Below, one piece after another: positions 221-17,420 of a stretch of 19,307 bases of DNA. Within the stretch, counting starts at the first letter, position 1. The number at the start of each line of letters is the position of its first letter. A program made the translations under genes and the position numbers. Source of the DNA: a bacterium (lineage in GTDB: Bacteria > Patescibacteriota > Microgenomatia > Daviesbacterales > UBA10151); NCBI GenBank assembly GCA_021786105.1, contig JAJYNW010000012.1, forward strand, positions 1-19,307. The letters run 5' to 3'. The notes below the pieces were generated by a model that worked only from the letters and a program-made list of their open reading frames with translations, was not told where the DNA came from and did no database searches.

Positions 221-277
221 GATCCCGCTTGGTAGGTAAATCTGTCCATTACCACTTTGCGAAAAAGGCCTCTACTC

Positions 278-3200
278 ATGTCATTAAACATAGCAAATAT
301 ACAAACAAACGAACGTAAATATTGGAGCAAAGCACCCTCAATTGTTCCTGAACTTAATTTAATCCAAATTCAATTAGACTCATATCATTGGTTTTTAAAT
401 GAAGGCATTAGGGAGGTTCTTGAAGAAATCTCCCCTGTTGAAGACTTCACAGGTAAAAATTGGACTCTAGAACTAGGGTCCTTTTATTTCGGTAAACCAA
501 AGTACACTTCTGAACAGGCCAAGGAAAAAGGCGTCACCTATGACGCCCCTTTAAAAATTGAGGCAATTTTAGTCAATAAACAAACCGGGCAAAGATACAA
601 GCAGGATGTATTTTTGGGTGATATCCCACAAATGACTGATAAAGGAACTTTTATCGTTAATGGAGTGGAAAGGGTTATTATTAACCAACTGGTCCGTTCT
701 CCGGGAGTATTTTTCCAGGCAGCTGATGATCCGATTACCGGGAGAAGATTATATTCGGCAGAAATCCGTCCTTACCGGGGTTCGTGGTTGGAGTTCTCTA
801 TCACCAGAGGCGGCGTGTTGACTGCCAAGATTGACAGGAGAAGAAAATTTGCCGCCACTACTTTACTTCGGGCTTTAGGTTTTTCCGAAAACGAATCAAT
901 TGCCGAACTTTTTAAAGATGTTGATACTGCTGAAGAAAAATTTATTGATACCACTCTTGCGAAAGATCCGACTAAAACCACTGATGAAGCACTCCTCGAA
1001 ATATTTAGAAAAATGCGACCGGGTGACCCGGTTGTTTTGGATAATGCCAAGGCACTCCTCGACGGAATGTTTTTCAATTCCCGCCGCTATAATTTAATTA
1101 AAGTTGGCAGATATAAGATTAATAAAAGACTAGGCTTGGATTTGCCGAATGCCCCGGAAAATTGGATTCTGACCAAAGACGACATTATTGCCACATTAAA
1201 GTACCTAATTAAACTAAATAACGGTGAGGGTAAATTAGATGATATCGATCATTTGGCTAACAGGCGGGTTAGGTGTGCGGGAGAGCTAGTGCAGCAAAAT
1301 GCCTTTAGGATCGGAGTTTTAAGACTGGAAAGAATTATTAAAGAAAGAATGAGTTTGACCGCGGCTGATGCTGAAGTTTCCCCGGGCGGACTTATTAATG
1401 CCAAGCCGGTGATTGCGGCCATCAATGAATTTTTCCGCTCTTCTCAATTGTCTTCTATCCTGGATCAGGTTAACCCGTTGTCTGAGTTGGATCATTTAAG
1501 ACGTCTTTCAGTTATGGGAGCCGGTGGTATTACCAGAGATAGGGCCAGTTTCTCCGTCCGCGACATTAACCACTCTCAATATGGTCGGATTGACCCGATC
1601 AGATCTCCGGAAGGTCAAAATATTGGTCTGGTGACCTATTTAGCTTTATATGCCCGTATTAATGAATACGGATTTTTGGAAACTCCTTACCGGAAAGTAG
1701 TCATGCAGCGTGGTAAGCCGCAGGTGACTGATGATGTCATATATATAACTGCTGATGACGAAGAAGATTTTCATATTACCGAGGCTACGGTAAAGTTGGA
1801 TGACAAAGGTTACATTATTGATGACCGGGTGCCGACCCGTTTCCAGGGTAGTTTCTTTGAAGGTCCGGCCAAAGATATCTCCTTAATTGATATTTCCCCG
1901 CAGCAAATTTTCGGCACTTCTGCTGCATTGATTCCTTTCCTGGCCAATGATGACGCTAACCGGGCTTTGATGGGTACCCAGATGCAGTGTCAGGCAGTGC
2001 CGCTTTTGCGACCTACTGCCCCAATTGTGGGTACCGGTATGGAAAGAACAGTGGCTGACAATATGGGCCGGGTAGTCAGGGCACCGGCTGACGGAACTAT
2101 TAAATATGCTGATGCTAAAAAATTGATCTTGCAAACTAAGAATGAAGAACTCCGCTATGACATCAAAAAGTTTGTTCACTCACCGCAAGGCACTTGTTAT
2201 TCACAAAGGCCGGTAGTGAATACGGGAGATAAAGTTAAAAAGGGTGACTTGTTGGTCGATGGTGCCGCTTGTGAAAACGGGGAGTTAGCGCTCGGTCAAA
2301 ACTTAAGAATTGCTTATATGAGTTTTGATGGTTTGGGGTACGAAGATGCGATTGTGATTTCTGACCGGTTAGTCAAAGAAGATGCGCTAACCTCTATTCA
2401 TATTGAAGAATATGAAGTGGATGTGGTGGAAACCAAACTGGGGCCGGAAGAGTTAACCTCTGATATCCCCAATGTTTCTGAGGAAGCTTTAGTCAATTTG
2501 GATGAAAATGGTATTGTTAGGATTGGGGCAGAGGTTGGGCCAAATGACATTTTGGTCGGTAAAGTTCAGCCTAAAGGCGAAACCGAGTTGACTGCGGAAG
2601 AAAGATTACTGCGGGCCATCTTTGGTGAGAAAGCCAAAGAAGTCAGGGATACCTCTTTGCGGATTCCGCACGGAGAAAGAGGTACAGTAATTGGAGTGCA
2701 AATTTTGTCACGAGACGCCGGAGATGAGTTGGATACCGGTACTTTGATGAGAATTAAAGTTAAAGTGGCCCAAATGAGAAAAGTGACTGAGGGAGATAAG
2801 TTAGCTGGTCGCCATGGTAACAAAGGAGTTATTTCCCGAATTGTACCGGCTGCCGACATGCCGTATATGGCAGACGGGACACCGGTGGATATTATTATTT
2901 CTCCCCTATCAGTTTTATCAAGGATGAATCTGGGACAATTGTTGGAAACGCACTGGGGTTTTGCCGGTAAGAAACTAGGTTATAAAGTGGCGGCACCGGT
3001 GTTTGAAAAAATTCCGGAAGACAAATTAATGGCAGAACTGCAAAGAGCCGGGTTTCCCACTGATGGTAAAGTACAATTATTTGACGGTAGGACCGGCCAG
3101 CCATTTGAAAATACCATTGTGGTCGGTATCAATTACATCCTCAAGCTGATCCACATGGTTGAGGAAAAGATTCATGCCCGTTCTACCGGTCCGTACTCTT

Positions 3201-3640
3201 TGGTTACTCAACAGCCTTTGGGCGGAAAAGCTCAAATGGGAGGACAAAGATTGGGAGAGATGGAAGTTTGGGCTTTGGAAGCATATGGAGCAGCCCATAT
3301 TTTACAGGAAATGTTAACTATTAAGTCCGATGATGTGGTGGGCCGGGCTAAGGCTTTTGAAGCTATAGTTAAAGGAATTGATATTCCTCAGGCTTTAATT
3401 CCGGAATCATTTAAAGTTTTGGTGAAAGAATTGCAAGCATTGGGCTTAAATGTTGAAACGCTTGGTGCTAAAATAGTCGAAGCTCAAGAGATTGAGGAAA
3501 AGCCGGAAGTGGCAGCCGAGGTGGCCCAACTGGAAGAAGAATTAGAAGTAAAATCGGCTGCGGTGGAAGAAGAATTGGAAGATAGCTCGTTTGAAGTGGT
3601 TGATGCAAGCGAGTTAGAGAAAAAGGAGGAGGGTGAATAG
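278..3640 (+). CDS. rpoB: DNA-directed RNA polymerase subunit beta
   Basis: Conserved motifs QLVRSPG, GDKLAGRHGNKGV, HARSTGPYSLVTQQPLGG and GGQRLGEMEVWALEAYGA. ATG at 278 is preferred over the in-frame TTG at 257. Acidic C-terminal tail. Confidence 0.99.
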   Translation: MSLNIANIQTNERKYWSKAPSIVPELNLIQIQLDSYHWFLNEGIREVLEEISPVEDFTGKNWTLELGSFYFGKPKYTSEQAKEKGVTYDAPLKIEAILVNKQTGQRYKQDVFLGDIPQMTDKGTFIVNGVERVIINQLVRSPGVFFQAADDPITGRRLYSAEIRPYRGSWLEFSITRGGVLTAKIDRRRKFAATTLLRALGFSENESIAELFKDVDTAEEKFIDTTLAKDPTKTTDEALLEIFRKMRPGDPVVLDNAKALLDGMFFNSRRYNLIKVGRYKINKRLGLDLPNAPENWILTKDDIIATLKYLIKLNNGEGKLDDIDHLANRRVRCAGELVQQNAFRIGVLRLERIIKERMSLTAADAEVSPGGLINAKPVIAAINEFFRSSQLSSILDQVNPLSELDHLRRLSVMGAGGITRDRASFSVRDINHSQYGRIDPIRSPEGQNIGLVTYLALYARINEYGFLETPYRKVVMQRGKPQVTDDVIYITADDEEDFHITEATVKLDDKGYIIDDRVPTRFQGSFFEGPAKDISLIDISPQQIFGTSAALIPFLANDDANRALMGTQMQCQAVPLLRPTAPIVGTGMERTVADNMGRVVRAPADGTIKYADAKKLILQTKNEELRYDIKKFVHSPQGTCYSQRPVVNTGDKVKKGDLLVDGAACENGELALGQNLRIAYMSFDGLGYEDAIVISDRLVKEDALTSIHIEEYEVDVVETKLGPEELTSDIPNVSEEALVNLDENGIVRIGAEVGPNDILVGKVQPKGETELTAEERLLRAIFGEKAKEVRDTSLRIPHGERGTVIGVQILSRDAGDELDTGTLMRIKVKVAQMRKVTEGDKLAGRHGNKGVISRIVPAADMPYMADGTPVDIIISPLSVLSRMNLGQLLETHWGFAGKKLGYKVAAPVFEKIPEDKLMAELQRAGFPTDGKVQLFDGRTGQPFENTIVVGINYILKLIHMVEEKIHARSTGPYSLVTQQPLGGKAQMGGQRLGEMEVWALEAYGAAHILQEMLTIKSDDVVGRAKAFEAIVKGIDIPQALIPESFKVLVKELQALGLNVETLGAKIVEAQEIEEKPEVAAEVAQLEEELEVKSAAVEEELEDSSFEVVDASELEKKEEGE

Positions 3641-3708
3641 TTAATAGATAAAAGTTAATAGATAATAGAAAGAAAAAAAACTATTACCTATTAGCAATTA
3701 ACTATTAA
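3638..3708. repeat. Heptamer tandem-repeat inverted hairpin filling the rpoB-rpoC spacer
   Basis: Left arm has TAATAG-N units with TAG/AAG at 3638, 3645, 3652, 3659, 3666. Right arm has CTATTA-N units with CTA/CAA at 3681, 3688, 3695, 3702. 28-bp stem 3641-3668/3681-3708 with 4 mismatches and a 12-nt A-rich loop. Confidence 0.9.
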
Positions 3709-3711
3709 GAA

Positions 3712-6700
3712 ATGAATATGAACGATTTACTAGATTTTGAAAGCTTAAGATTAACAGTAGCCAGCCCGGAGCAAATAAGAAGCTGGTCTTTTGGTGAGGT
3801 TAGCAAACCGGAAACTATTAATTACCGGACTCTTAAGGCGGAAAAAGACGGTTTATTCTCCGAAAACATCTTTGGTCCGACTAAAGATTATGAATGTTAC
3901 TGTGGTAAGTACAAAAGAATTAGATTCAGAGGGGTTATTTGTGATAAGTGTGGAGTTGAAGTCACTCAGTCTAAGGTCAGGCGCGAAAGAATGGGCCATA
4001 TTAATTTGGCTTCACCGGTAGCCCACTCTTGGTTTGTTAAAGGCGCACCTTCCAAATTATCTTTGATCTTGGATATTTCACCAAAGAACTTGGAAGCGGT
4101 GATTTACTTTGCTTCATATTTGGCGACCAATGTTGATTCGGCCGGCAAAACCGCGGCTTTGGAAAGATTAGAGAAAGATCTGCAGGAAAAAATTGCTGCT
4201 TCCAAAGAAAACACGGAGAAAAATATTGCAGCTTTGGAAGATAGTCTTAAGAAAGAGCTGTCAGAATTAAAGAAAAAATTCGAAAAGGAAAAATTTGAGC
4301 TGGAAGCACAGGAGCTGGAACTGAAAAACAGGGCAGAAATTCAGAAATTAAGAGATGGCTTGGTTACTGAAATCGGCACTCTGGAGGGGATTTTTAAGGC
4401 TGTCTCAGATTTGGTTAAAAGTGTTACACAATTAAAGTTATTGTCAGAAGAAGAGTACTTTAAGCTTTCCGAATACGGAGTGTCGGATTTTGTGGAAGTC
4501 GGCATGGGTGCTGAAGCATTTTTGGATGTATTACAAAAGCTGGATTTGGATAAGTTATCCGCCCATTTGCGGGAAGAAGTCAGAAAGTCCAGCGGACAAA
4601 AACATATTAAAGCTACCAAAAGACTTCGAGTCATTGAAGGTATGCGTTCATCGGGCATCTCTCCTTCCTGGTTAGTTTTACGGGTATTGCCGGTTTTACC
4701 TCCTGACCTTCGACCAATGGTTCAGCTACCGGGAGGCAGGTTTGCCACTTCTGATTTAAATGATCTTTACCGGAGAGTTATTAACAGAAATAACCGTTTG
4801 AACAGGTTGATTAATTTAGGTGCACCAGAAATCATTTTGAGAAATGAAAAAAGAATGCTGCAAGAAGCAGTAGATAGCTTGATTGATGCTACTTCCAGAA
4901 CTTCCAGACGGGGCGGACCGGTCAGCACTCATGTATTGCGGTCCCTTTCCGACATGCTGCGGGGTAAACAAGGAAGATTTAGGCAGAATTTGTTAGGTAA
5001 AAGGGTTGATTATTCCGGAAGGTCAGTGATTGTGGTCGGGCCAAGGCTTAAGTTAAACCAGGTCGGTTTGCCAAAGGAAATGGCTTTGGAAATGTTTAAA
5101 CCCTTTGTCTTGCGTGAGATGATTGCCAGAGGCTTGGCCTCCAATGTCAAGGGAGCCAAAAATGTGTTGGAGTTGAGGCCTTCGGAGGTATGGGATATTT
5201 TGGAAGAGATTATTACCGGACACCCGATTCTTATAAACCGGGCTCCGACTTTGCACCGTCTAGGTATTCAGGCTTTTCATCCGGTTTTGGTTGACGGTAA
5301 TGCCATTGCTATTCATCCTTGTATCTGCGCTGGTTTTAATGCTGACTTTGACGGCGACCAAATGGCTATCCATGTACCATTGTCTACCGATGCTCAGGAA
5401 GAAGCAAACAACTTGATGATGGCCAAAGAAAATATCTTTGGTCCAGCCAATGCTCAACCAATCACTGTGCCAAACCGGGAAATGGCTTTAGGTTGTTATT
5501 ATGTGACTGTAATTGAAGAGCCGGAAAAAGATGTACCTTTACAGTTTTTTACCTCTTCCACGGACGCTATCCGGGCTTATACTTTGGGATTTGTCGGTAT
5601 CCGGCAAAAGATTCAGGTCAGAATTGACAAAGAAGTGCTCGAGACATCAGTGGGAAGAATCTTGTTCAACCAGGTATTGCCGGCCCAAATGAGATTTATG
5701 AATTCAGTGATTAAAGGTCTAACTATCCGTGATATCATCCTGCGGGCGATGGAAGCTTTGACTAAAGAAGAGGTAGTTCAGTTAATTGATAGTATTAAAG
5801 CTATGGGTTTCTGGGGTGCTACCATTGCCGGTATTTCGATTTCAGTTTTTGATGCCAAGATTGTGCCTGATAAAGAAAAATACCTGGAAAGAGCCGGCAA
5901 AGAGATTGATGAAATTGAGAAAAATACGGCCAAAGGTTTGATTACTCCTCAGGAAAAATCTCAACTTTCCCAAATGGTTTGGATTAGAACTACCGAAGAG
6001 CTGGCTAATGCCACTTGGGATTATTTAGGCCCTAAGAACCCGATCAGAATGATGGTAGAAGCAGGTGCTCGGGGTTCCCGAGATCAGGCTAAACAGTTGT
6101 CTGCCATGCGGGGTTTGTCTACTGACCCAACCGGTAAGATTGTGGAATTGCCGACTAAGTCAAATTACCGACAAGGCTTGTCAGTCTTTGAATACTTTAC
6201 TTCTGCCAGAGGTGCGAGAAAAGGTGTGGCAGATAAAGCTTTGAAGACAGCCGATGCCGGGTATCTGACTCGAAGACTGGTTGATGTGGCTCATGATGTT
6301 ATTATCAGAATGGAAGACTGCGGAACTGAAGAGGCGCTTAATTATGATATTTCCAAGAGCAGCTTTAATACTGCCAGAGAAAAATTACTCGGCAGAGTAG
6401 CTGCAGACAATGTGTTAGAGCCTAAAAGCAGGAAAGTATTGGTTAAGAAGGGGACAGTGCTAATAGAGGATACAATCGCCCAGCTTTTAAAAGTCGGAGT
6501 GGTGAAGGTATCGGCCCGTTCTCCTTTAACCTGTGAAGCCCGTTATGGTATTTGCAGTACTTGTTACGGCTTTGATTTGACAACCAGAAAAATGGTGGCC
6601 ATCGGTACGCCGGTAGGAGTGGTAGCTGCGCAAGCTATTGGTGAGCCCGGAACGCAGTTGACCATGCGTACTTTCCATACTGGAGGAATTGTCGGGTTGG

Positions 6701-7407
6701 ATATTACTCAAGGTTTGCCCCGTGTTGAAGAATTGTTTGAAGCCAGAACTCCTAAAGTGGTGGCGCCGATGTCAGAGATTGCCGGAAAAGTTTCCATAGT
6801 TGAAACTGACATGGGAGTCCGGGTGAGGGTGAGAACTACCTCAAAACCGCACGAAGAAAGAGAATATATCATTCCGGCTACCTCAACCTTATTGGTAGAA
6901 GAAGGTCAGTTGATCGATGCCGGGACAATTTTGGCCTCCGGACATGTGGATACTAAAGAAACCTTGAGAATTCAGGGTCTAAGGGCCGCCCAACGTTATG
7001 TTGTTGATGAAGTCAGGAGTGTTTATGAATCTCAAGGTGTGCCGATTAACGAAAAGCATTTTGAGGTGATTGTCAGAAAGATGTCTGATAAAGTCAGGGT
7101 TGAGACTCAAGGCGATACGAATCTCTTGCCTGGTGAGATTATTGATAAACTGAGGTTTGAAGAAGAAAACAAGCGGGTGTTGGCAGGCGGTGGCGAACCG
7201 GCTACGGCAGAAGTAGTGATTTTGGGTATTACCCGAGCCAGCTTGCAAACAGAAAGCTTCCTGTCAGCAGCTTCATTCCAGGAAACTACGTCCATTTTGT
7301 CAGATGCAGCTATCTCCGGCAAGGTCGACAAGCTGATAGGACTGAAAGAAAATGTTATAATTGGCAGGCTTATCCCGACAGGGGAAAGAGCTAAGATAGA
7401 AACGTAA
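3712..7407 (+). CDS. rpoC: DNA-directed RNA polymerase subunit beta'
   Basis: N-terminal Zn finger CYCGKYK...CDKC, catalytic NADFDGD, bridge helix GARKG...GYLTRRLVDV, trigger loop TQLTMRTFHTGG without an SI3 insert. Confidence 0.99.
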   Translation: MNMNDLLDFESLRLTVASPEQIRSWSFGEVSKPETINYRTLKAEKDGLFSENIFGPTKDYECYCGKYKRIRFRGVICDKCGVEVTQSKVRRERMGHINLASPVAHSWFVKGAPSKLSLILDISPKNLEAVIYFASYLATNVDSAGKTAALERLEKDLQEKIAASKENTEKNIAALEDSLKKELSELKKKFEKEKFELEAQELELKNRAEIQKLRDGLVTEIGTLEGIFKAVSDLVKSVTQLKLLSEEEYFKLSEYGVSDFVEVGMGAEAFLDVLQKLDLDKLSAHLREEVRKSSGQKHIKATKRLRVIEGMRSSGISPSWLVLRVLPVLPPDLRPMVQLPGGRFATSDLNDLYRRVINRNNRLNRLINLGAPEIILRNEKRMLQEAVDSLIDATSRTSRRGGPVSTHVLRSLSDMLRGKQGRFRQNLLGKRVDYSGRSVIVVGPRLKLNQVGLPKEMALEMFKPFVLREMIARGLASNVKGAKNVLELRPSEVWDILEEIITGHPILINRAPTLHRLGIQAFHPVLVDGNAIAIHPCICAGFNADFDGDQMAIHVPLSTDAQEEANNLMMAKENIFGPANAQPITVPNREMALGCYYVTVIEEPEKDVPLQFFTSSTDAIRAYTLGFVGIRQKIQVRIDKEVLETSVGRILFNQVLPAQMRFMNSVIKGLTIRDIILRAMEALTKEEVVQLIDSIKAMGFWGATIAGISISVFDAKIVPDKEKYLERAGKEIDEIEKNTAKGLITPQEKSQLSQMVWIRTTEELANATWDYLGPKNPIRMMVEAGARGSRDQAKQLSAMRGLSTDPTGKIVELPTKSNYRQGLSVFEYFTSARGARKGVADKALKTADAGYLTRRLVDVAHDVIIRMEDCGTEEALNYDISKSSFNTAREKLLGRVAADNVLEPKSRKVLVKKGTVLIEDTIAQLLKVGVVKVSARSPLTCEARYGICSTCYGFDLTTRKMVAIGTPVGVVAAQAIGEPGTQLTMRTFHTGGIVGLDITQGLPRVEELFEARTPKVVAPMSEIAGKVSIVETDMGVRVRVRTTSKPHEEREYIIPATSTLLVEEGQLIDAGTILASGHVDTKETLRIQGLRAAQRYVVDEVRSVYESQGVPINEKHFEVIVRKMSDKVRVETQGDTNLLPGEIIDKLRFEEENKRVLAGGGEPATAEVVILGITRASLQTESFLSAASFQETTSILSDAAISGKVDKLIGLKENVIIGRLIPTGERAKIET

Positions 7408-7409
7408 AG

Positions 7410-7487
7410 GAGAGTCTAGAATCTAGTGACTAGAGTCTAGGAAAAACAAAATTCCACTTGACTCTAGACTCTAGCGACTAGCCGCTA
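7410..7487. repeat. Heptamer tandem-repeat inverted hairpin filling the rpoC-rpsL spacer
   Basis: Left arm has TAGAGTC-like units (TAG at 7417, 7424, 7431, 7438). Right arm has GACTCTA-like units (CTA at 7464, 7471, 7478, 7485). Perfect 11-bp pair CTAGAGTCTAG (7430-7440) / CTAGACTCTAG (7464-7474). A-rich loop; 7 CTAG tetramers. Confidence 0.9.
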
Positions 7488-7492
7488 TTTAT

Positions 7493-7948
7493 ATGCCGAC
7501 AATAAACCAATTAGTGAGAAAAGGCAGAAAAAATATTGCCAAAAAGATTAAAGCTACAGCCTTAAGACGAGGTTTTAATGCCAAAGATCGAAAATACACT
7601 CAGGATTTTAATCCGCAAAAGCGGGGAGTAGTAACTTTGGTCAAAACCATGACGCCAAAAAAACCTAATTCAGCTTTGCGGAAAGTAGCCAGGGTTAGAT
7701 TGTCTAACAGAACTGAAGTAACAGCTTACATTCAGGGTGAAGGACACTCTTTGGCCGAGCACGGTATTGTTTTAGTCAGAGGTGGTCGGGTGAAGGATTT
7801 GCCAGGAGTTAAATACCATTTAGTCAGAGGTAAATATGACTTGGCAGGTGTAGTTAACAGAAAACAAGGCAGATCCAGGTATGGTACTAAAAAAGGCGGA
7901 GGCGGTCCGGTTCCCAAAGCGGCCGCACCAGCCGGAGGAGGAGCATAA
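7493..7948 (+). CDS. rpsL: 30S ribosomal protein S12 (uS12)
   Basis: [25 protein letters not shown] and [10 protein letters not shown] motifs. Gly/Ala/Pro C-terminal extension. Confidence 0.99.
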
Positions 7949-8424
7949 TGAGAAGTAAAAAAGCAGAAAAAAGAGTAGCTCCTTTGGATCCGGTTTACGG
8001 TTCAAGGTTAATTTCCCGGTTTATTAACAAGGTGATGAAAGACGGTAAAAGATCAATTGCTGAGAAATTGGTTTATCAAGCTTTGGAAGAGATCAAAGAA
8101 AAATCCAAACAAGAGCCTTTGTCGGTTTTTGAAAAAGCTCTTAATAATGTGGCCCCGAAGATGGAAGTCAGGCCCCGCCGGGTCGGAGGAGCTTCTTATC
8201 AGGTACCGGTTGAGGTGCGGGGTGATCGGAAAGAAGCCTTGGCTATAAGGTGGATTTTAGCCGGGGCCAGATCCAGATCCAATAAAGAATATCATTCCTT
8301 TGATAAAAAACTGGCGGCAGAACTGCTGGATGCTTCTAATAACACCGGTTTGGCTATTAAGAAAAAGGACGATACTCAAAAAGCCGCAAATGCCAACCGG
8401 GCATTTTCTCATTTTCGCTGGTAA
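7948..8424 (+). CDS. rpsG: 30S ribosomal protein S7 (uS7)
   Basis: RRVGGASYQVPVEV and ANRAFSHFRW motifs. TAATG stop/start overlap with rpsL and GGAGGAGG just upstream. Confidence 0.99.
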   Translation: MRSKKAEKRVAPLDPVYGSRLISRFINKVMKDGKRSIAEKLVYQALEEIKEKSKQEPLSVFEKALNNVAPKMEVRPRRVGGASYQVPVEVRGDRKEALAIRWILAGARSRSNKEYHSFDKKLAAELLDASNNTGLAIKKKDDTQKAANANRAFSHFRW

Positions 8425-8458
8425 TTACCTCTTCGATATTTATCACTACTTTATTATA

Positions 8459-8487
8459 TTGACCTTACGGTTTTCACATATTAAACT
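8459..8487 (+). promoter_or_regulatory. sigma70-type promoter for the small ORF/PIN unit
   Basis: TTGACC (8459-8464), 17-nt spacer, TAAACT (8482-8487). Confidence 0.6.
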
Positions 8488-8502
8488 GATAAATATATAA
8501 TT

Positions 8503-8691
8503 ATGATGAATAGTAAAAGGCAGACGCCTCAAGATAGATTAAAGGAAAAATTACATAAGATTGATTTTTCTGAGAATGTTGATAGTTCTAAGAATTGTAG
8601 TTTCGATTCCAGGGAATTTGTTAGGAAAGCCAATGAGGTAAGAAAAACTTTTAGAAATGAAAATACTTTATTCTCCGAACCTAATTGCTGA
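8503..8691 (+). CDS. Small hypothetical protein, candidate antitoxin partner of the PIN gene
   Basis: 62-aa charged ORF directly after a promoter, overlapping the PIN gene start by 35 nt. Antitoxin role is inferred from position only. Confidence 0.45.
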   Translation: MMNSKRQTPQDRLKEKLHKIDFSENVDSSKNCSFDSREFVRKANEVRKTFRNENTLFSEPNC

Positions 8692-9188
8692 ACTGGCTAA
8701 TTCAGATTTATTCCTAGATACAAATACTTTTATAGGCGCTATTTCGTTCCCTGAATTGTTCGAAGAATTTTTTAAGCAGTTAAAGAATAGCGGATGTGCT
8801 TATATTACTATTCCATCAGTTCTTTTTGAGTTTACGAGAGGCGTAGAATCAATAGAAGCTTTTAATAAGAGGGCAGAGTTTATTACCAGTTTATCATCAA
8901 TATACCTATTGAAAGACATTTAAATGATTTAGAGTCTTTAACAATTGTTTTGCAAAGAATTCAGGTAGTATAAGTTATACTGACTTTTTACTTCTAGCTT
9001 GTCTTTATAAATTTCCTAAATCATTTCTGATTAGTGCGAATCATAAAGATTGTTCATTAGATATACTTGATCGCAAATTTGTGATTACTGTTGATACAGA
9101 CAAGGATATTAAAAACTATGATATATACCAATTTTCTTTAGACAAATTTAACAAAGCAGCAGAAAATATTTTAAAAAGTAATTCCTAA
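8657..9188 (+). pseudogene. PIN-domain (VapC-like) ribonuclease with two single-base frameshifts
   Basis: N-terminal part has LFLDTN and SVLFEF. It continues in a second frame (~8905-8961, PIERHLNDLESLTIVLQRI) and a third frame (8961-9188, SGSISYTDFLLLACL...LISANHKD...ILKSNS*). Restoring 2 nt gives about 177 aa with the PIN acidic motifs in order. Confidence 0.8.
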
Positions 9189-9716
9189 ATGGTCACAATA
9201 ATTTTTGAATCACACTCAACAACTTTTGATAATGAAAATCATTTATCATCTGGACATAATGATGTAGGACTTTCCCCTTTAGGGATGCAGCAGGCTAGGG
9301 AGTTAGGTGAAAGACGTAAAGCTGAGCATTTTGATGCTATTTTTTGTTCTGATTTGCAACGAGCTTACAAAACCGCGGAAATAGCCTTTAAAAACAGATT
9401 TCCCATTATTAAAGATAAAAGATTAAGAGAATGTGATTATGGAGATTTAACCAGACATCCAAGCAGCGAAGTTGATCCGTTAAAAGTGGAACATATTAAC
9501 AAACCTTTTCCAAATGGTGAAAGCTATGAACAAGCTGCTCGAAGAATGAAGGAATTTTTAGAGGAATTAAAGAGAGATTGTGAAGGTAAAAAGGTGATGG
9601 TTATTGGTCACCGGGCTACCCAATACGGATTGGAACACTGGATAAAGGGAGTTCCTATTAAAGATGCAGTTACTGCATCTTGGAAATGGCAGCCAGGCTG
9701 GGTTTATAGCTATTGA
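9189..9716 (+). CDS. Histidine phosphatase (phosphoglycerate mutase-like) family protein
   Basis: ESHSTT in place of RHG, plus FCSDLQRAYKTA, LRECDYG, FPNGES and VIGHRAT. ATG directly follows the PIN stop codon. Confidence 0.9.
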   Translation: MVTIIFESHSTTFDNENHLSSGHNDVGLSPLGMQQARELGERRKAEHFDAIFCSDLQRAYKTAEIAFKNRFPIIKDKRLRECDYGDLTRHPSSEVDPLKVEHINKPFPNGESYEQAARRMKEFLEELKRDCEGKKVMVIGHRATQYGLEHWIKGVPIKDAVTASWKWQPGWVYSY

Positions 9717-9743
9717 AACACTAGACATTGCCGCTGGTAATAT

Positions 9744-9772
9744 TTCACATTTCTTCTTTTTAGGTATACACT
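9744..9772 (+). promoter_or_regulatory. sigma70-type promoter predicting a leaderless transcript
   Basis: TTCACA (9744-9749), 17-nt spacer, TACACT (9767-9772). ATG at 9780. Confidence 0.55.
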
Positions 9773-9779
9773 TAAATTA

Positions 9780-10682
9780 ATGTCCAAGGGTTTTGCTGGA
9801 ATTTATATTTTATTAGGAATTTTATTATTAGTTGCTTTTGGTGGGGGATATTATTTTGGGGCAGGGAAAAATATTATTTCTGTACTATTCAGAAATAATC
9901 CTAAGATTTGTACTCAAGATGCCAAACAGTGCCTGGATGGTTCATATGTAGGCAGAATCGGTCCAAATTGTGAATTCAAATCTTGCCCTGCCTCTAAACC
10001 TACACCATCTCCGAGTGAAGTCGTTTACACTGAATCGTCCCACAGTGCTAGTTGGGAAACATATAGTTTTGAAAAATACGTCTCCAGGTATGGTAGGGCT
10101 TATTCTCTTTCATTCTCCTATCCTCCAAATTGGAAAGTAAGGGATCATGATTATCTTAGCGGTGCTGATGTAGCTTTTTTGTCACCAGACTATAAAACGC
10201 CCGAAATGGGTATAGCGGAAGAGATTTTAAAAGGTTATCGTATTGAAGTTTCGGTTTTATCTAATCAAAAGTTTTCAAGTTTAGAAGAGTGGGTTAAAAA
10301 CTATTATTATAATCCTCGTGAAAGAAAAGTTTATGTAAATCCTCAAAAGACAAAAATAGGCACTATAGATGCATTAATGTTTGAATGGAAAGATAAAGAA
10401 ACCGGAAAGATAGATATGATTACCGCACACACTTTTCATGCAAAAGTATTTGCTAAAGGAGATGCAGTATACATATTTCAGGTAGTTGCCCCATCTATAT
10501 CTTCGGAATACATATCTACTATGGATAAAATGTTGGCTACGGTTAAATTTTTAGATCAAGACCGAACCGGCACAGAGAACATATTTTGTGGGGGATTTGC
10601 CGGAACTGTTTGTCCTTTAGGGTATAAATGTCAGTTGGATGGGAACTATCCTGATGCTGGAGGCAGGTGTATAAAAGAATAG
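9780..10682 (+). CDS. Membrane-anchored/exported protein with Cys-rich modules and a PsbP-like central domain
   Basis: Leader MSKG|FAGIYILLGILLL, Cys module CTQDAKQCLDGSYVGRIGPNCEFKSCP, PTPSP linker, SFSYPPNW (PsbP-like start) and C-terminal CGGFAGTVCPLGYKC...C. Domain calls are by eye. Confidence 0.75.
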   Translation: MSKGFAGIYILLGILLLVAFGGGYYFGAGKNIISVLFRNNPKICTQDAKQCLDGSYVGRIGPNCEFKSCPASKPTPSPSEVVYTESSHSASWETYSFEKYVSRYGRAYSLSFSYPPNWKVRDHDYLSGADVAFLSPDYKTPEMGIAEEILKGYRIEVSVLSNQKFSSLEEWVKNYYYNPRERKVYVNPQKTKIGTIDALMFEWKDKETGKIDMITAHTFHAKVFAKGDAVYIFQVVAPSISSEYISTMDKMLATVKFLDQDRTGTENIFCGGFAGTVCPLGYKCQLDGNYPDAGGRCIKE

Positions 10683-10729
10683 CAGGCTAGTTTATGCGTG
10701 CGTTTCTTGACTTTAAGTGGTAATATATT

Positions 10730-10951
10730 ATGAATATGAGTAGATTAGGTAGTCCTGAAGGAGAGCCAATTGAACAATCTGTTGTTTCTCCAGATGCCTT
10801 AAGAAGGGTTGTCGGAAGTCTTCATAATATAGACCAAATAGAGGCGATTATGAGGATGGACCCTGATTCATCGGGTTTTCTTCTGAAAAGTTTAACAAAA
10901 GATTCTATTTCGTTTAATCTTTCCACTCTTGGCCGAAATCCCCGAAGCTGA
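10730..10951 (+). CDS. Hypothetical protein, possibly a truncated or frameshifted remnant
   Basis: 73-aa ORF (alternative start 10736) after an extended -10 TGgTAATAT (10718-10726). No recognisable domain. Confidence 0.4.
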   Translation: MNMSRLGSPEGEPIEQSVVSPDALRRVVGSLHNIDQIEAIMRMDPDSSGFLLKSLTKDSISFNLSTLGRNPRS

Positions 10952-10973
10952 AGAAGATTATCCATTTATCTAT

Positions 10974-10992
10974 TTGACTTTTAGGATCAAAA
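10974..10992 (+). repeat. 19-bp direct repeat, copy 1
   Basis: TTGACTTTTAGGATCAAAA, identical to 12704-12722. Confidence 0.9.
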
Positions 10993-11043
10993 ATATGCTT
11001 TCTCAATTTGACAAAGCTTAAATATTATGTCTTACTTAAGTTA

Positions 11044-12672
11044 ATGCCCAAACCGTCTGAGCGTGGTGTTGCTCATATTCTGTTTCTTTTACTGCTGGTG
11101 GTGGGGTTAATAGTGGGAGTATATTTAATCACCTCAGGCGCTCCTTTTAATTTCTTACCTAAAGCTTCTCTTTCAAAACCCACCGGCCCCGAAGTTAGCT
11201 TTTCTTTGGTAGGTCCTTCCGGTTGTACTGCCGGAATTCTTTGTGCCATTTATGGCCAGCATGCTTTACGGGAAGAGTTTGAAGTCAAACTATATGCCAG
11301 GTCAGATATTGAAACTGCTAATTTATTTACTGCCAAGATGACTTTCCCCAAAGATTTGGTAGAAGTTAAAGAGATTAGGGAAGAGAAAAGTTTTGGGCCA
11401 AATACCATCAATTGGGTAGAGGATTTTTATGATAACAATACCGGAGAGATTTCTTTGACAGGAGGAGTACCGGCTCCGGGATACCAAACTCAAGTTAATG
11501 GACCAGCAGGACTCATGGCTACCATTACCTTCAGAGCCAAAGCCTTAGGTAAAGGCACAGTGTCATTTACAGATTCCTCAGAAATATTGAGTAACTTAAA
11601 CAACATTAATATCTTAACTGTTAAAAGAGGATATGACTTTACCATTGAGGTCAAACCCTCACCTACACCTGTTTCTGGTTCTAGCTATTACATTGAAAAA
11701 TTACCAATAGGTGGTGTTTATATGGTAGCTCCTTCTGAAGCAGGAAGTGGTTATGCAGTTTATGCTTTGTTAAGAGATGGGCAAGGGAATGTAGTAGCAA
11801 ATCAGTCTAACTTAAATTATAGCTGGCAAGTGGAGCAGTTTGGCGGTGGCAGCACTATAAATGTGGAGCCTTTTGCAGGTTGCGCCAATGGGACGCAACC
11901 TCCTTGTCCGCTTGATCATGCAAATATTACTGTTCCTTCGGTTGGTTCTACCACTTCTGCTAATCTGTGGGTGACAGTGAGTGATAAAACTACTAATCAA
12001 ATTCTAACTAAAGCAGAATTTGTTTTAAATTTCGTGCCAAAAAGCGAATATGTCAGCTTCAATACTGTTAAACCAGGTTACAGTCAAGGAGAAACATATA
12101 ATGTTGGCCAGAAGGTTCCGATTAGTTGGAATTTAGTGGGTACAAATGTTGATTACTATAATTTAGGCTATTTCTATTATCAGGATGGGGCAAATAAGAG
12201 TGGATATATTGGTACAGTTAAATATCCAATTTCTTCTTATGATTGGACAATCCCGGCCGAGATAGCTAATCAACAAGTGCGGATTTCGATTGAACCGCGA
12301 GGTAAAGTTGTAACTAACCCAGGATGGGGTTATTCTGACTGGTCATTTAAGGTGGGATCCTCTAAGGTTTGTTTGCCCAGACCTGCTTGTTTGGATGCCA
12401 AGCCAGCCTGCAAACTGCCTGAGTCAGCAGAAGGATGGTGCCCGAATCCAACTCCAGTGCCTGGTCCAAAAGGCAATGGTGATGGGAATAAAGACGGCAA
12501 GATTAATCTGATCGATATGTCAATACTGCATACTGACTGGAAGGCAGATTTGAAGATTAACAAAACTATCAGAGAGGGAATAGATATGAACAATGATGGT
12601 TTAGTTAATGTCTTTGATTTCTCAGCTCTTCGTAATCTGCTGGCAAAACTGGGAGTGATTAAAATAAGATAA
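11044..12672 (+). CDS. Surface protein: pilin-like leader/TM, cohesin-like domain, Ig-like domains, Cys-rich module, C-terminal dockerin
   Basis: ATG at 11044 (MPKPSERG|VAHILFLLLLVVGLIVGVYLI) is preferred over TTG at 11008. Cohesin-like segment FEVKLYA...MTFPKDLVEV...ATITFRAKALGKGTVSF. Duplicated Ca-binding loops GDGNKDGKINLID and DMNNDGLVNVFD. Confidence 0.85.
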   Translation: MPKPSERGVAHILFLLLLVVGLIVGVYLITSGAPFNFLPKASLSKPTGPEVSFSLVGPSGCTAGILCAIYGQHALREEFEVKLYARSDIETANLFTAKMTFPKDLVEVKEIREEKSFGPNTINWVEDFYDNNTGEISLTGGVPAPGYQTQVNGPAGLMATITFRAKALGKGTVSFTDSSEILSNLNNINILTVKRGYDFTIEVKPSPTPVSGSSYYIEKLPIGGVYMVAPSEAGSGYAVYALLRDGQGNVVANQSNLNYSWQVEQFGGGSTINVEPFAGCANGTQPPCPLDHANITVPSVGSTTSANLWVTVSDKTTNQILTKAEFVLNFVPKSEYVSFNTVKPGYSQGETYNVGQKVPISWNLVGTNVDYYNLGYFYYQDGANKSGYIGTVKYPISSYDWTIPAEIANQQVRISIEPRGKVVTNPGWGYSDWSFKVGSSKVCLPRPACLDAKPACKLPESAEGWCPNPTPVPGPKGNGDGNKDGKINLIDMSILHTDWKADLKINKTIREGIDMNNDGLVNVFDFSALRNLLAKLGVIKIR

Positions 12673-12703
12673 AGTCTTCCTTCATAATTCATAGCATTAA
12701 TTG

Positions 12704-12732
12704 TTGACTTTTAGGATCAAAATCAGTAATAT
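12704..12732 (+). promoter_or_regulatory. sigma70-type promoter for mini-GreA/fusA; contains copy 2 of the 19-bp repeat
   Basis: TTGACT (12704-12709), 17-nt spacer, TAATAT (12727-12732). Confidence 0.65.
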
Positions 12733-12741
12733 TTACTTGTT

Positions 12742-12769
12742 GCCTCCCCGAGTTTGAGGGAGGTTTTTT
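12742..12769 (+). terminator. Intrinsic terminator-like hairpin just downstream of the promoter
   Basis: GCCTCCC (12742-12748) / GGGAGGT (12758-12764) stem with TTTTTT (12764-12769). Confidence 0.7.
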
Positions 12770-12799
12770 AAAGACTGAAAGTCGCAAGGTTCTTATATT

Positions 12800-13027
12800 A
12801 TGATGGATGTAAAGTTAAGGCAACAAAAAATTAAAATGTGGAAGGATAATCTAGCTAGGTTGGAAGAAGACCTAAAGGTTATTTTGGAGAAAAAAGGTGT
12901 GGCAGCTGCCGAAGGTGACCTGTCGGAAAACGCCGCTTACACCATGGCTTCTGAGGATGCAGAAACCACCAGAGTCAGAATTGAAGAAATTAAAAAATTA
13001 ATCAGAGATCTAGAAAAAGGGGAATAA
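12800..13027 (+). CDS. GreA/GreB N-terminal coiled-coil domain-only protein
   Basis: [13 protein letters not shown] matches the Gre tip motif GDLSENAEY, between two amphipathic helices. No C-terminal domain: the stop is 1 nt before the fusA ATG. Confidence 0.85.
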
Positions 13028-13028
13028 T

Positions 13029-15167
13029 ATGGCTATTGCAAAAACAAAAAGAGATTTTCCGCTGGATAGAATTAGAAATATCGGGATTATTGCCCATATT
13101 GATGCCGGCAAAACTACCACTACTGAGCGGATCCTTTTTTACACCGGAAAAACTTACAAAATTGGCAATATTGATGAAGGTACAACTGTGACTGACTGGA
13201 TGGAACAAGAGCGTGAACGTGGCATCACCATTGTTTCCGCAGCCATCACAGCTTTTTGGACTGTCAGAAAAGGCCTTTTTGAAGGTCATGAAATGAGGAT
13301 TAATTTAATTGATACTCCGGGACACGTTGATTTTACGGCTGAAGTGGAAAGGTCTTTGCGGGTGTTGGATGGGGCAGTAATCGTTTTGGATTCCTCCTCA
13401 GGAGTTCAGTCTCAAACAGAAACAGTTTGGAGGCAGGCTAATAAATACAGTGTTCCTTTGATTGCTTTTGCCAACAAAATGGATGTGGTGGGGGCCGACT
13501 TTCAGGCCACCATCCAATCAGCTCGGGATAGGTTGGGGGCAAATGCTATTGCTTACAACTTGCCAATCGGCAAGGAAAATGACTTCAAGGGAGTAGTTGA
13601 TCTTTTGACTGAGAAAGCCATTATTTGGGAAGGCGATCAAACCGGTGCCAAGTTTATTGAAGTAGAGATCCCGGCTAACATGGTTGAGGAAGTAAAGACT
13701 GCCCGGGCAAAATTAGTAGAAGAAATTTCCGGCACAGATGATGTGTTGATGGAAAAATATCTGGGTGGTGAGGAGATTACTGTGGAAGAATTGAAGATGG
13801 CTTTAAGGCGGGCAGTTATTGCCAATAAAATTGTTCCGGTAATGGCTGGTTCATCATTGCGGAATAAAGGGGTTCAGCCGATGCTTGATGCAGTGGTTGA
13901 GTATCTGCCTTCGCCTCAAGATATTGCTATAGTTACTGGTATAAACCCAAAAACAGGGGAAGCAGAAGAGAGAAAAGGCGATTCTAGCGCACCTCTGGCT
14001 GCTTTGGCCTTTAAAATCCAAGTTGATCCGCACGTCGGAAAGCTGACTTATATCAGGGTTTATTCCGGAACTTTAAAAAGCGGTTCTTATGTTTATAATG
14101 TTACCAAGCAAATTAGGGAGAGGGTTGGTAGGTTGCTTCTTATGCATGCCAATGATAGGGAGGAAATTGATGAAGCATATGCCGGAGAGATTGTAGCAGC
14201 AGTGGGGCTTAAAGATACGGTAACAGGGAACACGTTATGTGACGAAGGTGCTCCAATCATTTTGGAATCTATCACCTTTCCCGATCCGGTTATATCTTTG
14301 GCAATCGAACCCAAAACCAAATCTGACCAGGAAAAGTTGGGTTATGCTTTGCAGCGGTTGTCTGAAGAAGACCCGACTTTCCGAGTCAAATCTGATCCGG
14401 AAACAGGCCAAACTATCATTGCCGGGATGGGTGAACTTCAACTTGAGATTCTGGTGGACCGGATGAAAAGGGAATTTAAGCTGGAGGCCAACGTGGGTCA
14501 GCCGCAGGTGGCATATAAAGAAACTATTACTAAAGTTGCAGAAGGTGAAGGTAAATACATCAGGCAAACCGGCGGTCGCGGTCAATATGGGCACTGTTTG
14601 CTGCGGATTGAGCCTTTGCCTCGGGGAACCGGTCGGGAATTTGCTTCCGAAATTGTTGGTGGTGCCATTCCTCGGGAATTTATTCCTCCAATTGAAAAAG
14701 GAGTGATTGAAAAAGAAGACACCGGAATTTTGGCCGGTTATCCGGTGACTGATATTAAAGTGGTAGTTTATGATGGTTCTTTTCATGATGTTGATTCTTC
14801 CGAAGTGGCCTTTAAAATTGCCGCATCTTTAGGTTTGTCTGAGGCAGCTAAAAAAGCCGACATGATTTTGCTTGAACCTATCATGAAGGTGGAAGTCACT
14901 ACCCCGGATGAGTTTTTGGGAGAAATTATTGGTGATTTATCTTCCAAAAGGGCCCAAATTTTATCTTCTGAAACAAAAGGGAATGCCAGAGTGGTTATTG
15001 CTTTAGTGCCTTTAGCAGAGATGCATGGATATGCTACTGCTATCAGGTCTATGTCACAAGGCCGGGCTACTTATTACATGGAAGCAGATCACTACGAAAC
15101 CGTGCCATCCAATATTACCCAAAAAATCATCGAATCCTCAGGTTTCACTGGACGAGTGGAACATTAA
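13029..15167 (+). CDS. fusA: Elongation factor G
   Basis: [33 protein letters not shown] and HDVDSS motifs. Confidence 0.99.
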
Positions 15168-15185
15168 GTACCAACATCAAATATT

Positions 15186-15446
15186 ATGGGCATTGATAGG
15201 GAACCAAAAGCTCGGCTCTATACAAAAATCCTGCGACAGCGAACACGAAAAGAAGCTGCTGAAAAAGATCAAATAGATAAAGACTATGAGGAATTAAAAC
15301 ATATGGGCTTAGTTCATGGAGATTTTCTCGAAGGGCTTCCTGAGGTGCCAGATGCAGAGATTCCTAAAATTGAAAACCTTATCGAGCGAGCTATGGAGAG
15401 ATTTAGGACTTCCCATAGAGCGCATTTACCTGAGAGAAAAAACTAG
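15186..15446 (+). CDS. Hypothetical protein
   Basis: 86-aa ATG ORF fitting between fusA and the SPFH gene. Charged and helical; no recognisable motif. Confidence 0.55.
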   Translation: MGIDREPKARLYTKILRQRTRKEAAEKDQIDKDYEELKHMGLVHGDFLEGLPEVPDAEIPKIENLIERAMERFRTSHRAHLPERKN

Positions 15447-15458
15447 CCTCTTTATTAG

Positions 15459-15467
15459 TGGTATACT
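15459..15467 (+). promoter_or_regulatory. Extended -10 promoter predicting a leaderless transcript
   Basis: TGgTATACT (15459-15467). ATG at 15474. No SD sequence. Confidence 0.6.
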
Positions 15468-15473
15468 TGAAGT

Positions 15474-16241
15474 ATGGAAATTTTTTATTTGGTCGGAGCT
15501 TTCTTCTTAATTATTCTTTTACTTATCAGTTTTAAAATTGTTCAGGAATATGAGCGGGGGGTAATTTTTTTTCTGGGAAGAGTGACTGGGGTCAGGGGGC
15601 CAGGATTGATTATTTTAATCCCGATTTTTGAAAGAATGCAAAAGGTAACTCTTAGAACAATCACCATGGATATTCCCTCCCAAAAGATAATTACCAAAGA
15701 TAATGTTTCAATAGATATTGCCGCTGTTGCCTATTATCATATTGTCGACCCGAAAAAGTCGGTGATAGCCATTGAGGATGTGTATTCTGCTGTTAACCAA
15801 ATTTCTCAAACCACTGTCCGGAATGTGGTTGGACAATTTACCCTGGATCAGCTGCTTTCCAAAACCGGTGATATCAATGATCAAATCAGAAGTGTAATTG
15901 ACAAACATACCGAACCCTGGGGAGCGCAAGTGACAGCGGTGGAAATTAAAGATATCGTTCTACCGGATAATATGCAAAGGGCGATGGCTAAAGAAGCTGA
16001 GGCGGAAAGAGAAAGAAGAGCCAAAATTGTGGCGGCAGAAGGAGAAAAACAGGCAGCTGAGGCTTTGGGTCAGGCAGCTGATTTGATATCTAAACATCCG
16101 GTGGCGCTGCAGCTTCGGACTTTGCAAACCATGGCCGAAATTTCTACTGAGAAGAATTCCACTATTATCTTCCCGGCCCAATTTATGACTACAGTGCAGG
16201 AGGCTATTAAAACTTTGGCCAAAGATACTTCCGGAAGATAA
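15474..16241 (+). CDS. SPFH/band-7 stomatin-like (slipin) protein
   Basis: N-terminal [50 protein letters not shown] and ALQLRTLQT. Confidence 0.95.
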
Positions 16242-16260
16242 GTTTCTCAACTTAACCCTT

Positions 16261-16289
16261 TTGACTATAGGGCCTTAAGTCGTTATAAT
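16261..16289 (+). promoter_or_regulatory. Near-consensus sigma70 promoter predicting a leaderless gpsA transcript
   Basis: TTGACT (16261-16266), 17-nt spacer, TATAAT (16284-16289). ATG at 16297. No SD sequence. Confidence 0.8.
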
Positions 16290-16296
16290 CACCTTC

Positions 16297-17382: not shown

Positions 17383-17391
17383 TTTAACCTA

Positions 17392-17420
17392 TTGCATTAT
17401 TATTTGGTTTAGTGTATATT
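17392..17420 (+). promoter_or_regulatory. sigma70-type promoter for tuf
   Basis: TTGCAT (17392-17397), 17-nt spacer, TATATT (17415-17420). The leader has hairpins at 17428-17444 and 17451-17465. Confidence 0.6.

Follow-up and report, generated by a model that had tools for sequence, protein, structure and literature searches.

Heptad-stem hairpins on either side of rpoC in a Candidatus Daviesbacteria relative: probable gene-free members of a dispersed element family

The 19,307-nt stretch of DNA analysed here (the window) is a whole contig, C19, of a bacterial genome of 1.04 Mb (G000; 26 contigs, 40% G+C, 92% complete), whose closest named kin are Candidatus Daviesbacteria, members of the Candidate Phyla Radiation. 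Both its rpoB/rpoC and its rpoC/rpsL spacer consist of inverted arrays of four to five 7-nt units (heptads), which form a hairpin lying flush between the upstream stop codon and the next ATG. We found that each of these hairpins is a recent insertion: at the same junctions most relatives have only 0-4 nt or overlapping genes. The two are of different unit families and arrived separately. Elements of this build, with and without a TIGR02436 gene, make up a dispersed, insertion-polymorphic heptad-stem family constructed like the intervening sequences (IVS) of 23S rRNA, and copies that are filled with the gene have their arms in common with copies that are empty. The reading that we favour, and consider probable, is that the two hairpins are members of this family that lack an open reading frame (ORF), dispersed as selfish elements and derived from IVS-type cassettes much as miniature inverted-repeat transposable elements (MITEs) derive from their parents.

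Two hairpins of tandem heptads at junctions with hardly any spacer in most relatives

The two spacers and their surroundings comprise the following features, all on the + strand and numbered by window position:

257-3640, + strand: rpoB (Pfam RNA_pol_Rpb2 domains)
3625-3633, + strand: Shine-Dalgarno-like GGAGGAGGG inside the rpoB 3' end, assigned from sequence
3641-3711, + strand: spacer 1, between rpoB and rpoC
3641-3668, + strand: hairpin 1, 5' arm of four heptads (TTAATAG, ATAAAAG, TTAATAG, ATAATAG), preceded by the TAG of rpoB
3669-3680, + strand: hairpin 1, A-rich loop AAAGAAAAAAAA, 12 nt, assigned from arm pairing and fold
3681-3708, + strand: hairpin 1, 3' arm (CTATTAC, CTATTAG, CAATTAA, CTATTAA), followed by GAA and then ATG
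3712-7407, + strand: rpoC (Pfam RNA_pol_Rpb1 domains), the gene unsplit
7408-7492, + strand: spacer 2, between rpoC and rpsL
7408-7412, + strand: Shine-Dalgarno-like AGGAG, right after the rpoC stop at the foot of hairpin 2
7411-7440, + strand: hairpin 2, 5' arm (AGAGTCTAG, AATCTAG, TGACTAG, AGTCTAG), assigned from arm pairing and Tandem Repeats Finder (TRF)
7441-7456, + strand: hairpin 2, loop GAAAAACAAAATTCCA, 16 nt, common to paralogues on contig C17
7457-7486, + strand: hairpin 2, 3' arm CTTGACTCTAGACTCTAGCGACTAGCCGCT, followed by ATTTAT and then ATG
7493-7948, + strand: rpsL, encoding S12 (151 aa; Pfam Ribosom_S12_S23)

An initial annotation of this DNA had described inverted period-7 arms, an A-rich loop and an ATG 3-5 nt further on in both spacers, and TRF (period 7 in 4/4 arms), arm pairing and folding all agree with this description. 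The arms of hairpin 1 are 28 nt long and 82% complementary, and its predicted RNA fold of -16.6 kcal/mol (z -4.95) was equalled by 0/200 shuffles. Hairpin 2 has arms of 30 nt with 73% complementarity and a fold of -25.6 kcal/mol (z -2.45) that was equalled by 5/200 shuffles, i.e. it is weaker than hairpin 1 by this measure. The ATG at 3712 comes 3 nt past the last heptad of hairpin 1, and the ATG at 7493 comes 5 nt past the last CTA of hairpin 2.

The same annotation had stated that TAG recurs every 7 nt in the left arms and CTA every 7 nt in the right arms. This is true of hairpin 2 (TAG at 7417, 7424, 7431 and 7438; CTA at 7464, 7471, 7478 and 7485), whose unit contains the palindrome CTAG, and hence TAG recurs in its right arm too. 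Hairpin 1 follows the pattern in part, with TAG at four of five places (3638, 3645, 3659 and 3666; AAG at 3652) and CTA at three of four (3681, 3688 and 3702; 3695 is off-pattern). The claim that stop codons occupy all three frames was borne out for both strands in each spacer. In spacer 1 the heptad register opens with the rpoB stop itself (TAG, 3638-3640), where relatives have TGA within ATGA. Downstream, rpoC has two in-frame ATGs, the first at 3712 and the second at 3718, which corresponds to the relatives' start ATGAACGAT in a junction alignment made by eye; the window reads ATG AAT ATG AAC at 3712-3720. The letters TGAAT stand on either side of hairpin 1 as a possible target duplication, in a junction whose sequence differs among members of the genus.

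Both hairpins matched contigs of two other studies without a single difference, hairpin 1 in X6 record 17 and hairpin 2 in X3 record 8 and X6 record 24. Because these contigs agree fully, the hairpins are not assembly artefacts.

To place the insertions, the same junctions were taken from 40 relatives (18 congeners, 6 further members of the family and 16 of the class), which are not mutually independent. The rpoC/rpsL spacer was resolved in 27 of 29 loci: 17 of these have 0-4 nt, 5 have 11-35 nt and 5 have 66-122 nt. Among the long spacers, that of G022 holds a different heptad hairpin (AAAATGC-type), that of G034 another palindrome and that of G036 something else; in G012 and G010 (loci L008 and L013) the junction holds a common non-heptad palindrome of TATAA type. 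The rpoC/rpsL hairpin of G000 was present in 0/15 same-genus genomes with data, 11/15 of which have 4 nt or less at this position. One relative, G011, has the same ACG-stop-AGGAGA at its rpoC end without the hairpin, and in a co-occurring relative in run X4 rpoC and rpsL are bridged by 40 other letters replacing 7377-7490, again without a hairpin. Likewise, rpoB and rpoC of 22 relatives mostly overlap as ATGA or are separated by a short spacer, and the hairpins found there are an 80-nt CTATCAG/CTGACGA hairpin in G007 and a TAGTTCA/CTACGAA hairpin in G020.

The elements of G000 were thus found in no relative at these junctions. Because the relatives carry either none or hairpins of other units there, both junctions have been hit repeatedly and independently, and the initial annotation's view of a pair bracketing rpoC as a unit does not stand: the hairpins are of different unit families and were inserted separately. 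Nor did the expected concentration in essential operons emerge, as about 9 of about 86 junction-genomes of this operon were occupied, not clearly above the genome-wide density. The control junction rpsL/rpsG was occupied in 2/28 relatives, by an octad array in G019 and by heptads in G022.

A dispersed period-7 family, with and without a four-helix-bundle gene

A strict autocorrelation scan of G000 returned 21 lag-7 arrays versus 0 in local shuffles, and none at lags 8-14. At a looser threshold, 54 lag-7 arrays were found versus 7 in shuffled sequence; lags 5, 8 and 10 were at chance, and lags 6, 9 and 12 showed the modest excess expected from coding repeats. On a crude longest-ORF map covering 92% of G000, which we used for all genes outside the window, 26/54 arrays are mostly non-coding. 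An inverted tandem partner lies near 22/54 arrays, versus 3/54 and 10/54 in two controls, mostly at a distance of 7-60 nt and in two cases at ~370-400 nt. Fourfold TAG at period 7 occurs 12 times and fourfold CTA 19 times, with counts of 0-1 at periods 5, 6 and 8-11. The unit groups in this genome are ACTCTAG, AAACCCT, ACTGACG, AAAATC/AAAATTC, AACAGGC, AATTAGA and TAATAG, which upholds the proposal of a family defined by structure, in which units differ and architecture is kept. All hairpin counts for G000 are lower bounds and come from different detectors; a strict ungapped hairpin finder gave only 6 hairpins, missed hairpin 2 and was excluded from the counts.

Units of CCCTAAA/TTTAGGG, spelled like the plant-type telomere repeat, occur at C3:24170, C13:13298, C17:49417, C18:13929 and C21:19422 and 26495. 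Several of these copies are solitary and have no inverted partner.

The ACTCTAG family, that of hairpin 2, numbers about 13 copies in G000, most of which end in ..GTCACTA(N2-5)ATG at start codons. Its sites include atpA/atpG, rplV/rpsC, the junction of a resolvase-like gene with dnaN, that of an unknown gene with smpB, that of a class II tRNA synthetase with D-Ala-D-Ala carboxypeptidase, and that of two T2SSE ATPase genes; the folds of these hairpins have z-scores of -2.9 to -4.9. A paralogue of the whole of hairpin 2, loop included, lies in opposite orientation at C17:29274-29339 (89.6% over 67 nt), and arm matches were found elsewhere. At rplV/rpsC (L196 880-1010, equal to G000 C16:3779-3909), the 5' arm has TGG in place of the family's TAG and is read through as a C-terminal extension of L22 by ~29 aa beyond the Pfam domain. 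Two contig ends, C10:4886-4930 and C12:100-163, carry ACTCTAG-type arms beside the mutually inverted CTGACCCACCTGCA and TGCAGGTGGGTCAG; a different cargo, not a four-helix-bundle gene, may have lain between them and been lost in an assembly gap.

The gene that fills some copies encodes a four-helix-bundle protein (PF05635/TIGR02436). G000 has PF05635 matches at three places, two of which are flanked by heptad arms:

C13:23517-23825: PF05635 ORF between TTCAAAA-type heptads and their complement
C17:41814-42131: PF05635 ORF, with the next gene's ATG right after the downstream arm

The third match (C3:13700-14120) is weak, and its flanks are period-9 repeats (TTATAACNN) similar to the palindrome of G012 and G010. 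The C17 protein scores 96.7 bits against TIGR02436 and 110 bits against PF05635. Its locus reads [5' arm]-loop-[3' arm]-ORF-[3' arm]-ATG, with two identical 36-nt 3' arms. The hairpin upstream of this ORF is complete, of the same family as hairpin 2 and collinear with it, and the 3' arm of hairpin 2 is nearly identical to the arm that stands before and after the C17 gene.

The tie between heptads and this gene extends well beyond G000. PF05635 was matched in 38/41 related genomes of ~1 Mb, with up to 14 matches per genome, and fourfold TAG at period 7 likewise in 38/41, mostly with at least 15 matches per genome when the two strands are added up, versus 3/41 for period 8. The two counts correlate (Spearman rho 0.49, a support that is overstated by the kinship of the genomes). 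In G030, G031 and G034 the PF05635 matches numbered 0, 0 and 1 (weak) and the TAG arrays 0, 2 and 0; TGA and CAG arrays were absent from all three. Reading 31 loci of the relatives, we found lag-7 flanks (at least 16/21) in 23, lag 8 in 2 and lag 6 in 0, the downstream array being the complement of the upstream one.

A search with the C17 protein yielded 80 loci, 76 of them usable, from Patescibacteria, Bacteroidota, Planctomycetota, Acidobacteriota, Chloroflexota, Proteobacteria and others. Lag 7 was seen in either flank of 45 and in both flanks of 19, compared with 9/556 control windows; lag 8 was seen at 7 loci and lag 9 at one, and none showed lag 5, 6 or 10. At 38/76 loci the element's own arms were complementary at 13/14 or better, versus 1/149 when partners were taken from other loci. 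The arms co-vary within an element and differ between elements. Matching plasmid records numbered 37, including 15 from Nostoc, 4 from Calothrix and others from further cyanobacteria; of eight cyanobacterial plasmid loci read, five have lag-7 and one has lag-8 flanks. An unverified statement in the initial annotation, that similar arms flank four-helix-bundle genes, is confirmed by these figures from G000, its relatives, other phyla and cyanobacterial plasmids. The plasmid genes sit between co-directional genes, several of them within cas operons: L193, L194 and L195 place a four-helix-bundle gene before cas4, between cas6 and cas4, and between cas10 and cmr3. L194, on a Pseudanabaena galeata plasmid, has at least 12 heptads on each side in direct instead of inverted order (AAAAGCT upstream, AAAAGCC downstream).

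Empty and filled copies can be compared side by side in G018. This genome has at least 13 empty hairpins of the form ..ATAG (NNNTCAG)4 AC, a 6-16 nt loop, GT (CTGANNN)4 CTAT(N1-5) ATG, which lie between genes on either strand. The loop AAATCAGAAA(A) recurs in three copies, once in the opposite orientation. At L187, a filled copy, the ORF occupies exactly the loop position (..CAGAC/ATG ... /GTCTGA..). Two or three of the empty loops start with the same 7 nt as the ORF end of this filled copy, a weak hint that fits deletion of the ORF rather than its later arrival. Filled alleles, whose existence had been predicted, are thus at hand at C17 and C13 in G000, at L187 in G018 and at the loci of the relatives.

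In G020, of the same family as G000, a copy of this type lies inside 23S rRNA. The gene spans 4165 nt and contains one PF05635 match; in the Rfam alignment, an insertion of ~400 nt falls in a hairpin loop at model positions 1218/1219, just before GGUAGGGGAGCG. Its borders are the heptads TTCGGAT and GTCAGAT and their complement, which pair in the predicted fold (z -6.2). The loop at 1218/1219 is presumably that of helix 45, which we take to be the classical IVS site. The 23S rRNA gene of G000 is absent from the assembly. Just downstream of the 23S gene, heptad-armed four-helix-bundle cassettes lie at L203 (G020 C22:9250-9950) and L204 (G007 C2:126400-127200).

In the remainder of the window, Pfam identified, besides rpoB, rpoC and rpsL, the gene rpsG and, further along, fusA, tuf and rpsJ. 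The str operon is interrupted at 8424-13029 and 15167-17520. The rpsG-fusA gap of ~4.6 kb holds an 88-aa ORF, a histidine phosphatase, a family-less 300-aa ORF and a 554-aa dockerin-domain protein, and the fusA-tuf gap holds an 86-aa ORF, a Band 7/SPFH protein and a glycerol-3-phosphate dehydrogenase. The Pfam domain of S12 covers residues 38-132 of 151, and the long N-terminal part is common to relatives. No Rfam family reached its gathering score across the full window, and matches to the window in metatranscriptome X8 were only short, <90% alike and belonged to other organisms. Among the listed sequencing runs that contain this stretch, none is registered as RNA.

The proposed selfish elements and the alternatives

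If the hairpins are selfish elements, they would ride on the transcription of the host operon. Insertion would be tolerated since the stem loops out and leaves a Shine-Dalgarno motif 6-10 nt from the downstream AUG: with the stems looped out, GGAGGAGGG stands ~10 nt from the ATG at 3712 and AGGAG ~6 nt from that at 7493. A comparable arrangement is seen at locus L178 of G018, with AAGGAG right before the stem and an ATG 4 nt past it. The stop trinucleotides of the heptads would end the upstream frame, whichever frame enters. RNase III, encoded in G000 at C13:7594-7983, would cut the stem as it does IVS stems and so split the rpoB-rpoC-rpsL transcript, in which case operon structure would be rewritten at the RNA level.

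Several observations weigh against this interpretation. Both stems are imperfect, and hairpin 2 only modestly beats its shuffles. Hairpin 1 has no close paralogue in G000 at E <= 0.01, its looser look-alike being C14:74353-74408. More than half of the lag-7 arrays (28/54) lie in ORFs on the crude map. In G018, a Shine-Dalgarno-like motif directly precedes the stem in only about half of the 13 copies inspected by eye. G002, of the same genus, has neither PF05635 nor TAG arrays, yet it has 5 TGA and 3 CAG arrays (49 and 75 in G018). We found no transposase and no reverse transcriptase (PF00078, the sole mobility family sought) in the 92% complete G000, nor a clear target-site duplication or a linked recombinase, so that mobility is argued from distribution alone. 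Cleavage of the stems by RNase III is probable purely by analogy. Finally, among 76 stems, mismatches read on the sense strand of the ORF were of G.U type in 75 cases versus A.C type in 76; because the two are nearly equal, there is no sign of selection on the sense RNA fold. Stem pairing may instead be made or kept at the DNA level.

The two arms of these stems also differ in composition. Purines are more frequent in the 5' arm than in the 3' arm of 68/76 stems and less frequent in 7, with TAG counted 100 versus 28 times and AGG 79 versus 3 times, the TCAG/CTGA family being an exception. Because an inverted repeat reads alike on both strands, this bias belongs to the element and not to the direction of the ORF.

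Among the alternatives, we first consider that empty hairpins came first and served as attachment sites for four-helix-bundle cassettes made of an ORF and one arm, much as in integrons. This resembles the landing pad suggested by the initial annotation, and one case fits it: at C17 the ORF stands beside a complete hairpin, between two perfect right-arm copies, and hairpin 2 matches the hairpin part of that layout. In most filled copies, however, the ORF simply stands in place of the loop, with a single 5' arm before it and a single 3' arm after it; no recombinase is linked to the elements, and the G018 loops that begin like the end of the ORF hint, weakly, at ORF deletion. We therefore judge this order of events unlikely.

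Somewhat less room is left for regulatory hairpins selected by the host, whether as processing sites that uncouple the rpoB, rpoC and rpsL mRNAs, as stabilizers or as translational coupling devices. The stems do lie flush between stop and start with a Shine-Dalgarno-like motif just upstream, the hairpins are identical across contigs of three studies, and transcript stability or translational coupling was suggested for similar hairpins between hupS and hupL, according to excerpts of that paper (PMC2670836). Yet the rpoC/rpsL hairpin is missing from every same-genus genome with data, most of which have hardly any spacer; the relatives' hairpins at these junctions have unrelated units, the same element type stands at unrelated junctions such as atpA/atpG, rplV/rpsC and before dnaN and smpB, and G.U pairs are not in excess over A.C. 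A regulatory role thus seems rather doubtful as the reason for their presence.

To the same rather doubtful degree, a broader scheme can be entertained, in which heptad arrays of this kind, with those of cyanobacteria among them, mark where a single pan-bacterial class of mobile cassettes, centred on the TIGR02436 protein, has been. The arms would be made at the DNA level, a 7-nt template being copied repeatedly, in the manner of telomerase, onto the 3' ends that flank the insertion site. Such copying would explain the inverted symmetry, the use of one unit in both arms and of other units in other copies, as well as the 5' arm that is purine-rich and often T-A-G-G-like on both strands, and the missing G.U bias. 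Empty hairpins between essential genes would then be scars or non-autonomous copies.

In-situ slippage of a chance 7-mer, as in microsatellites, with hairpin and gene tie incidental, is very improbable. Unit copy number does vary, point changes separate units within an array, and heptamer number differs among Coxiella strains in excerpts of the IVS study concerned (PMC4990558). Slippage, however, yields no matching inverted array nearby (22/54 versus 3/54), cannot give common non-repeat loops at different loci and in both orientations, and gives no preference for period 7 alone.

Intrinsic terminators or attenuators can be set aside almost entirely: the spacer hairpins are stable and one weak terminator-like match falls at 7472-7487, but no T-run (U-tract in the transcript) follows either stem, the ATG comes within 3-5 nt, the window scan gave 4 terminator-like sites versus 4.1 expected (promoters and terminators together being at or below chance), and the hairpins stand inside operons with essential genes downstream.

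Relation to known elements

If the hairpins are indeed empty, IVS-derived members of a selfish family, IVS-type elements are not restricted to rRNA and enter the tightest junctions of the most essential operons in some of the smallest bacterial genomes. Odd spacers of 70-90 nt would be explained, as would the seemingly extended C termini of some gene products, rplV on C16 being one case. The 'IVS protein' family, among the commonest small proteins of unknown function, would gain a testable role, and the heptamer repeats of cyanobacteria, a fingerprinting tool since the 1990s without a known source, a testable origin.

The protein of the elements is distantly related to Avd of diversity-generating retroelements (bAvd Pfam E 1.5e-6, below the curated cut-off; NF033474 28.7 bits versus a cut-off of 80). 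In contrast to such retroelements, G000 yielded no reverse transcriptase (PF00078), which weighs against a reading as this or another retroelement type in this genome, and the genes stand alone between heptad arms. Repetitive extragenic palindromes (REPs), their paired form (REPINs) and MITEs are alike in being short palindromic extragenic repeats with many copies in both orientations, a few long ones beside many short. Here, however, the arms consist of tandem 7-nt units that differ between copies, and not of a single sequence kept in all of them. A search aimed solely at PF00078 gave no RAYT or other transposase, and the linked protein is a four-helix bundle without a known catalytic motif. 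REPINs are said to be mobile hairpin pairs.

The closest known systems are the 23S IVS and the hairpins of short tandemly repeated repetitive sequences (STRRs) of cyanobacteria. IVS of 23S rRNA that bear S23p/PF05635 occur in Coxiella, Leptospira and Salmonella, inserted at the tip of helix 25 or 45, and are excised by RNase III without religation. The window elements resemble them in the long stem of terminal inverted repeats, and G020 has a heptad-stem PF05635 cassette inside a 23S rRNA hairpin loop. They differ in lying in the mRNA spacers rpoB/rpoC and rpoC/rpsL and not in rRNA, and in having loops of only 12 and 16 nt without an ORF, whereas paralogous and related copies carry one. In Coxiella, as excerpts of the report state, the IVS has a 28-bp terminal stem, its S23p ORF is preceded by GACAGAT heptamers in tandem, two or three depending on the strain, and RNase III cleaves at the first repeat (PMC4990558). 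Insertions in the rRNA of the Candidate Phyla Radiation hold 23S_rRNA_IVP (PF05635) ORFs, according to excerpts of a further paper (PMC11270868).

The window elements had been called undescribed, which is right in part. Our literature search, which did not extend to subscription journals, found no description of such hairpins in the Candidate Phyla Radiation and, apart from the Coxiella IVS, no paper connecting heptamer arrays with four-helix-bundle genes; heptad hairpins between co-transcribed genes, by contrast, are in print for cyanobacteria, as are the Coxiella heptamers.

STRRs are repeats of filamentous or heterocystous cyanobacteria with canonical units. They were reportedly treated by Mazel in 1990, as were the small dispersed repeats of Nostoc by Elhai in 2008, and an STRR inside the RNase P RNA gene is said to be the topic of one study. 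The excerpts mentioned above describe an STRR hairpin of 7-bp repeats between hupS and hupL whose function is given as unknown, with the proposals already named (PMC2670836). The window hairpins differ from STRRs in their host, a relative of Candidatus Daviesbacteria and not a cyanobacterium, in their TAATAG- and ACTCTAG-type units, and in being insertions into near-zero spacers that are tied to TIGR02436 genes. They share with STRRs the tandem 7-nt units, the dispersed copies mainly outside genes and the inverted arrays that form a hairpin between co-transcribed genes, and on plasmids of Nostoc and Trichormus, heptads of this kind flank four-helix-bundle genes.

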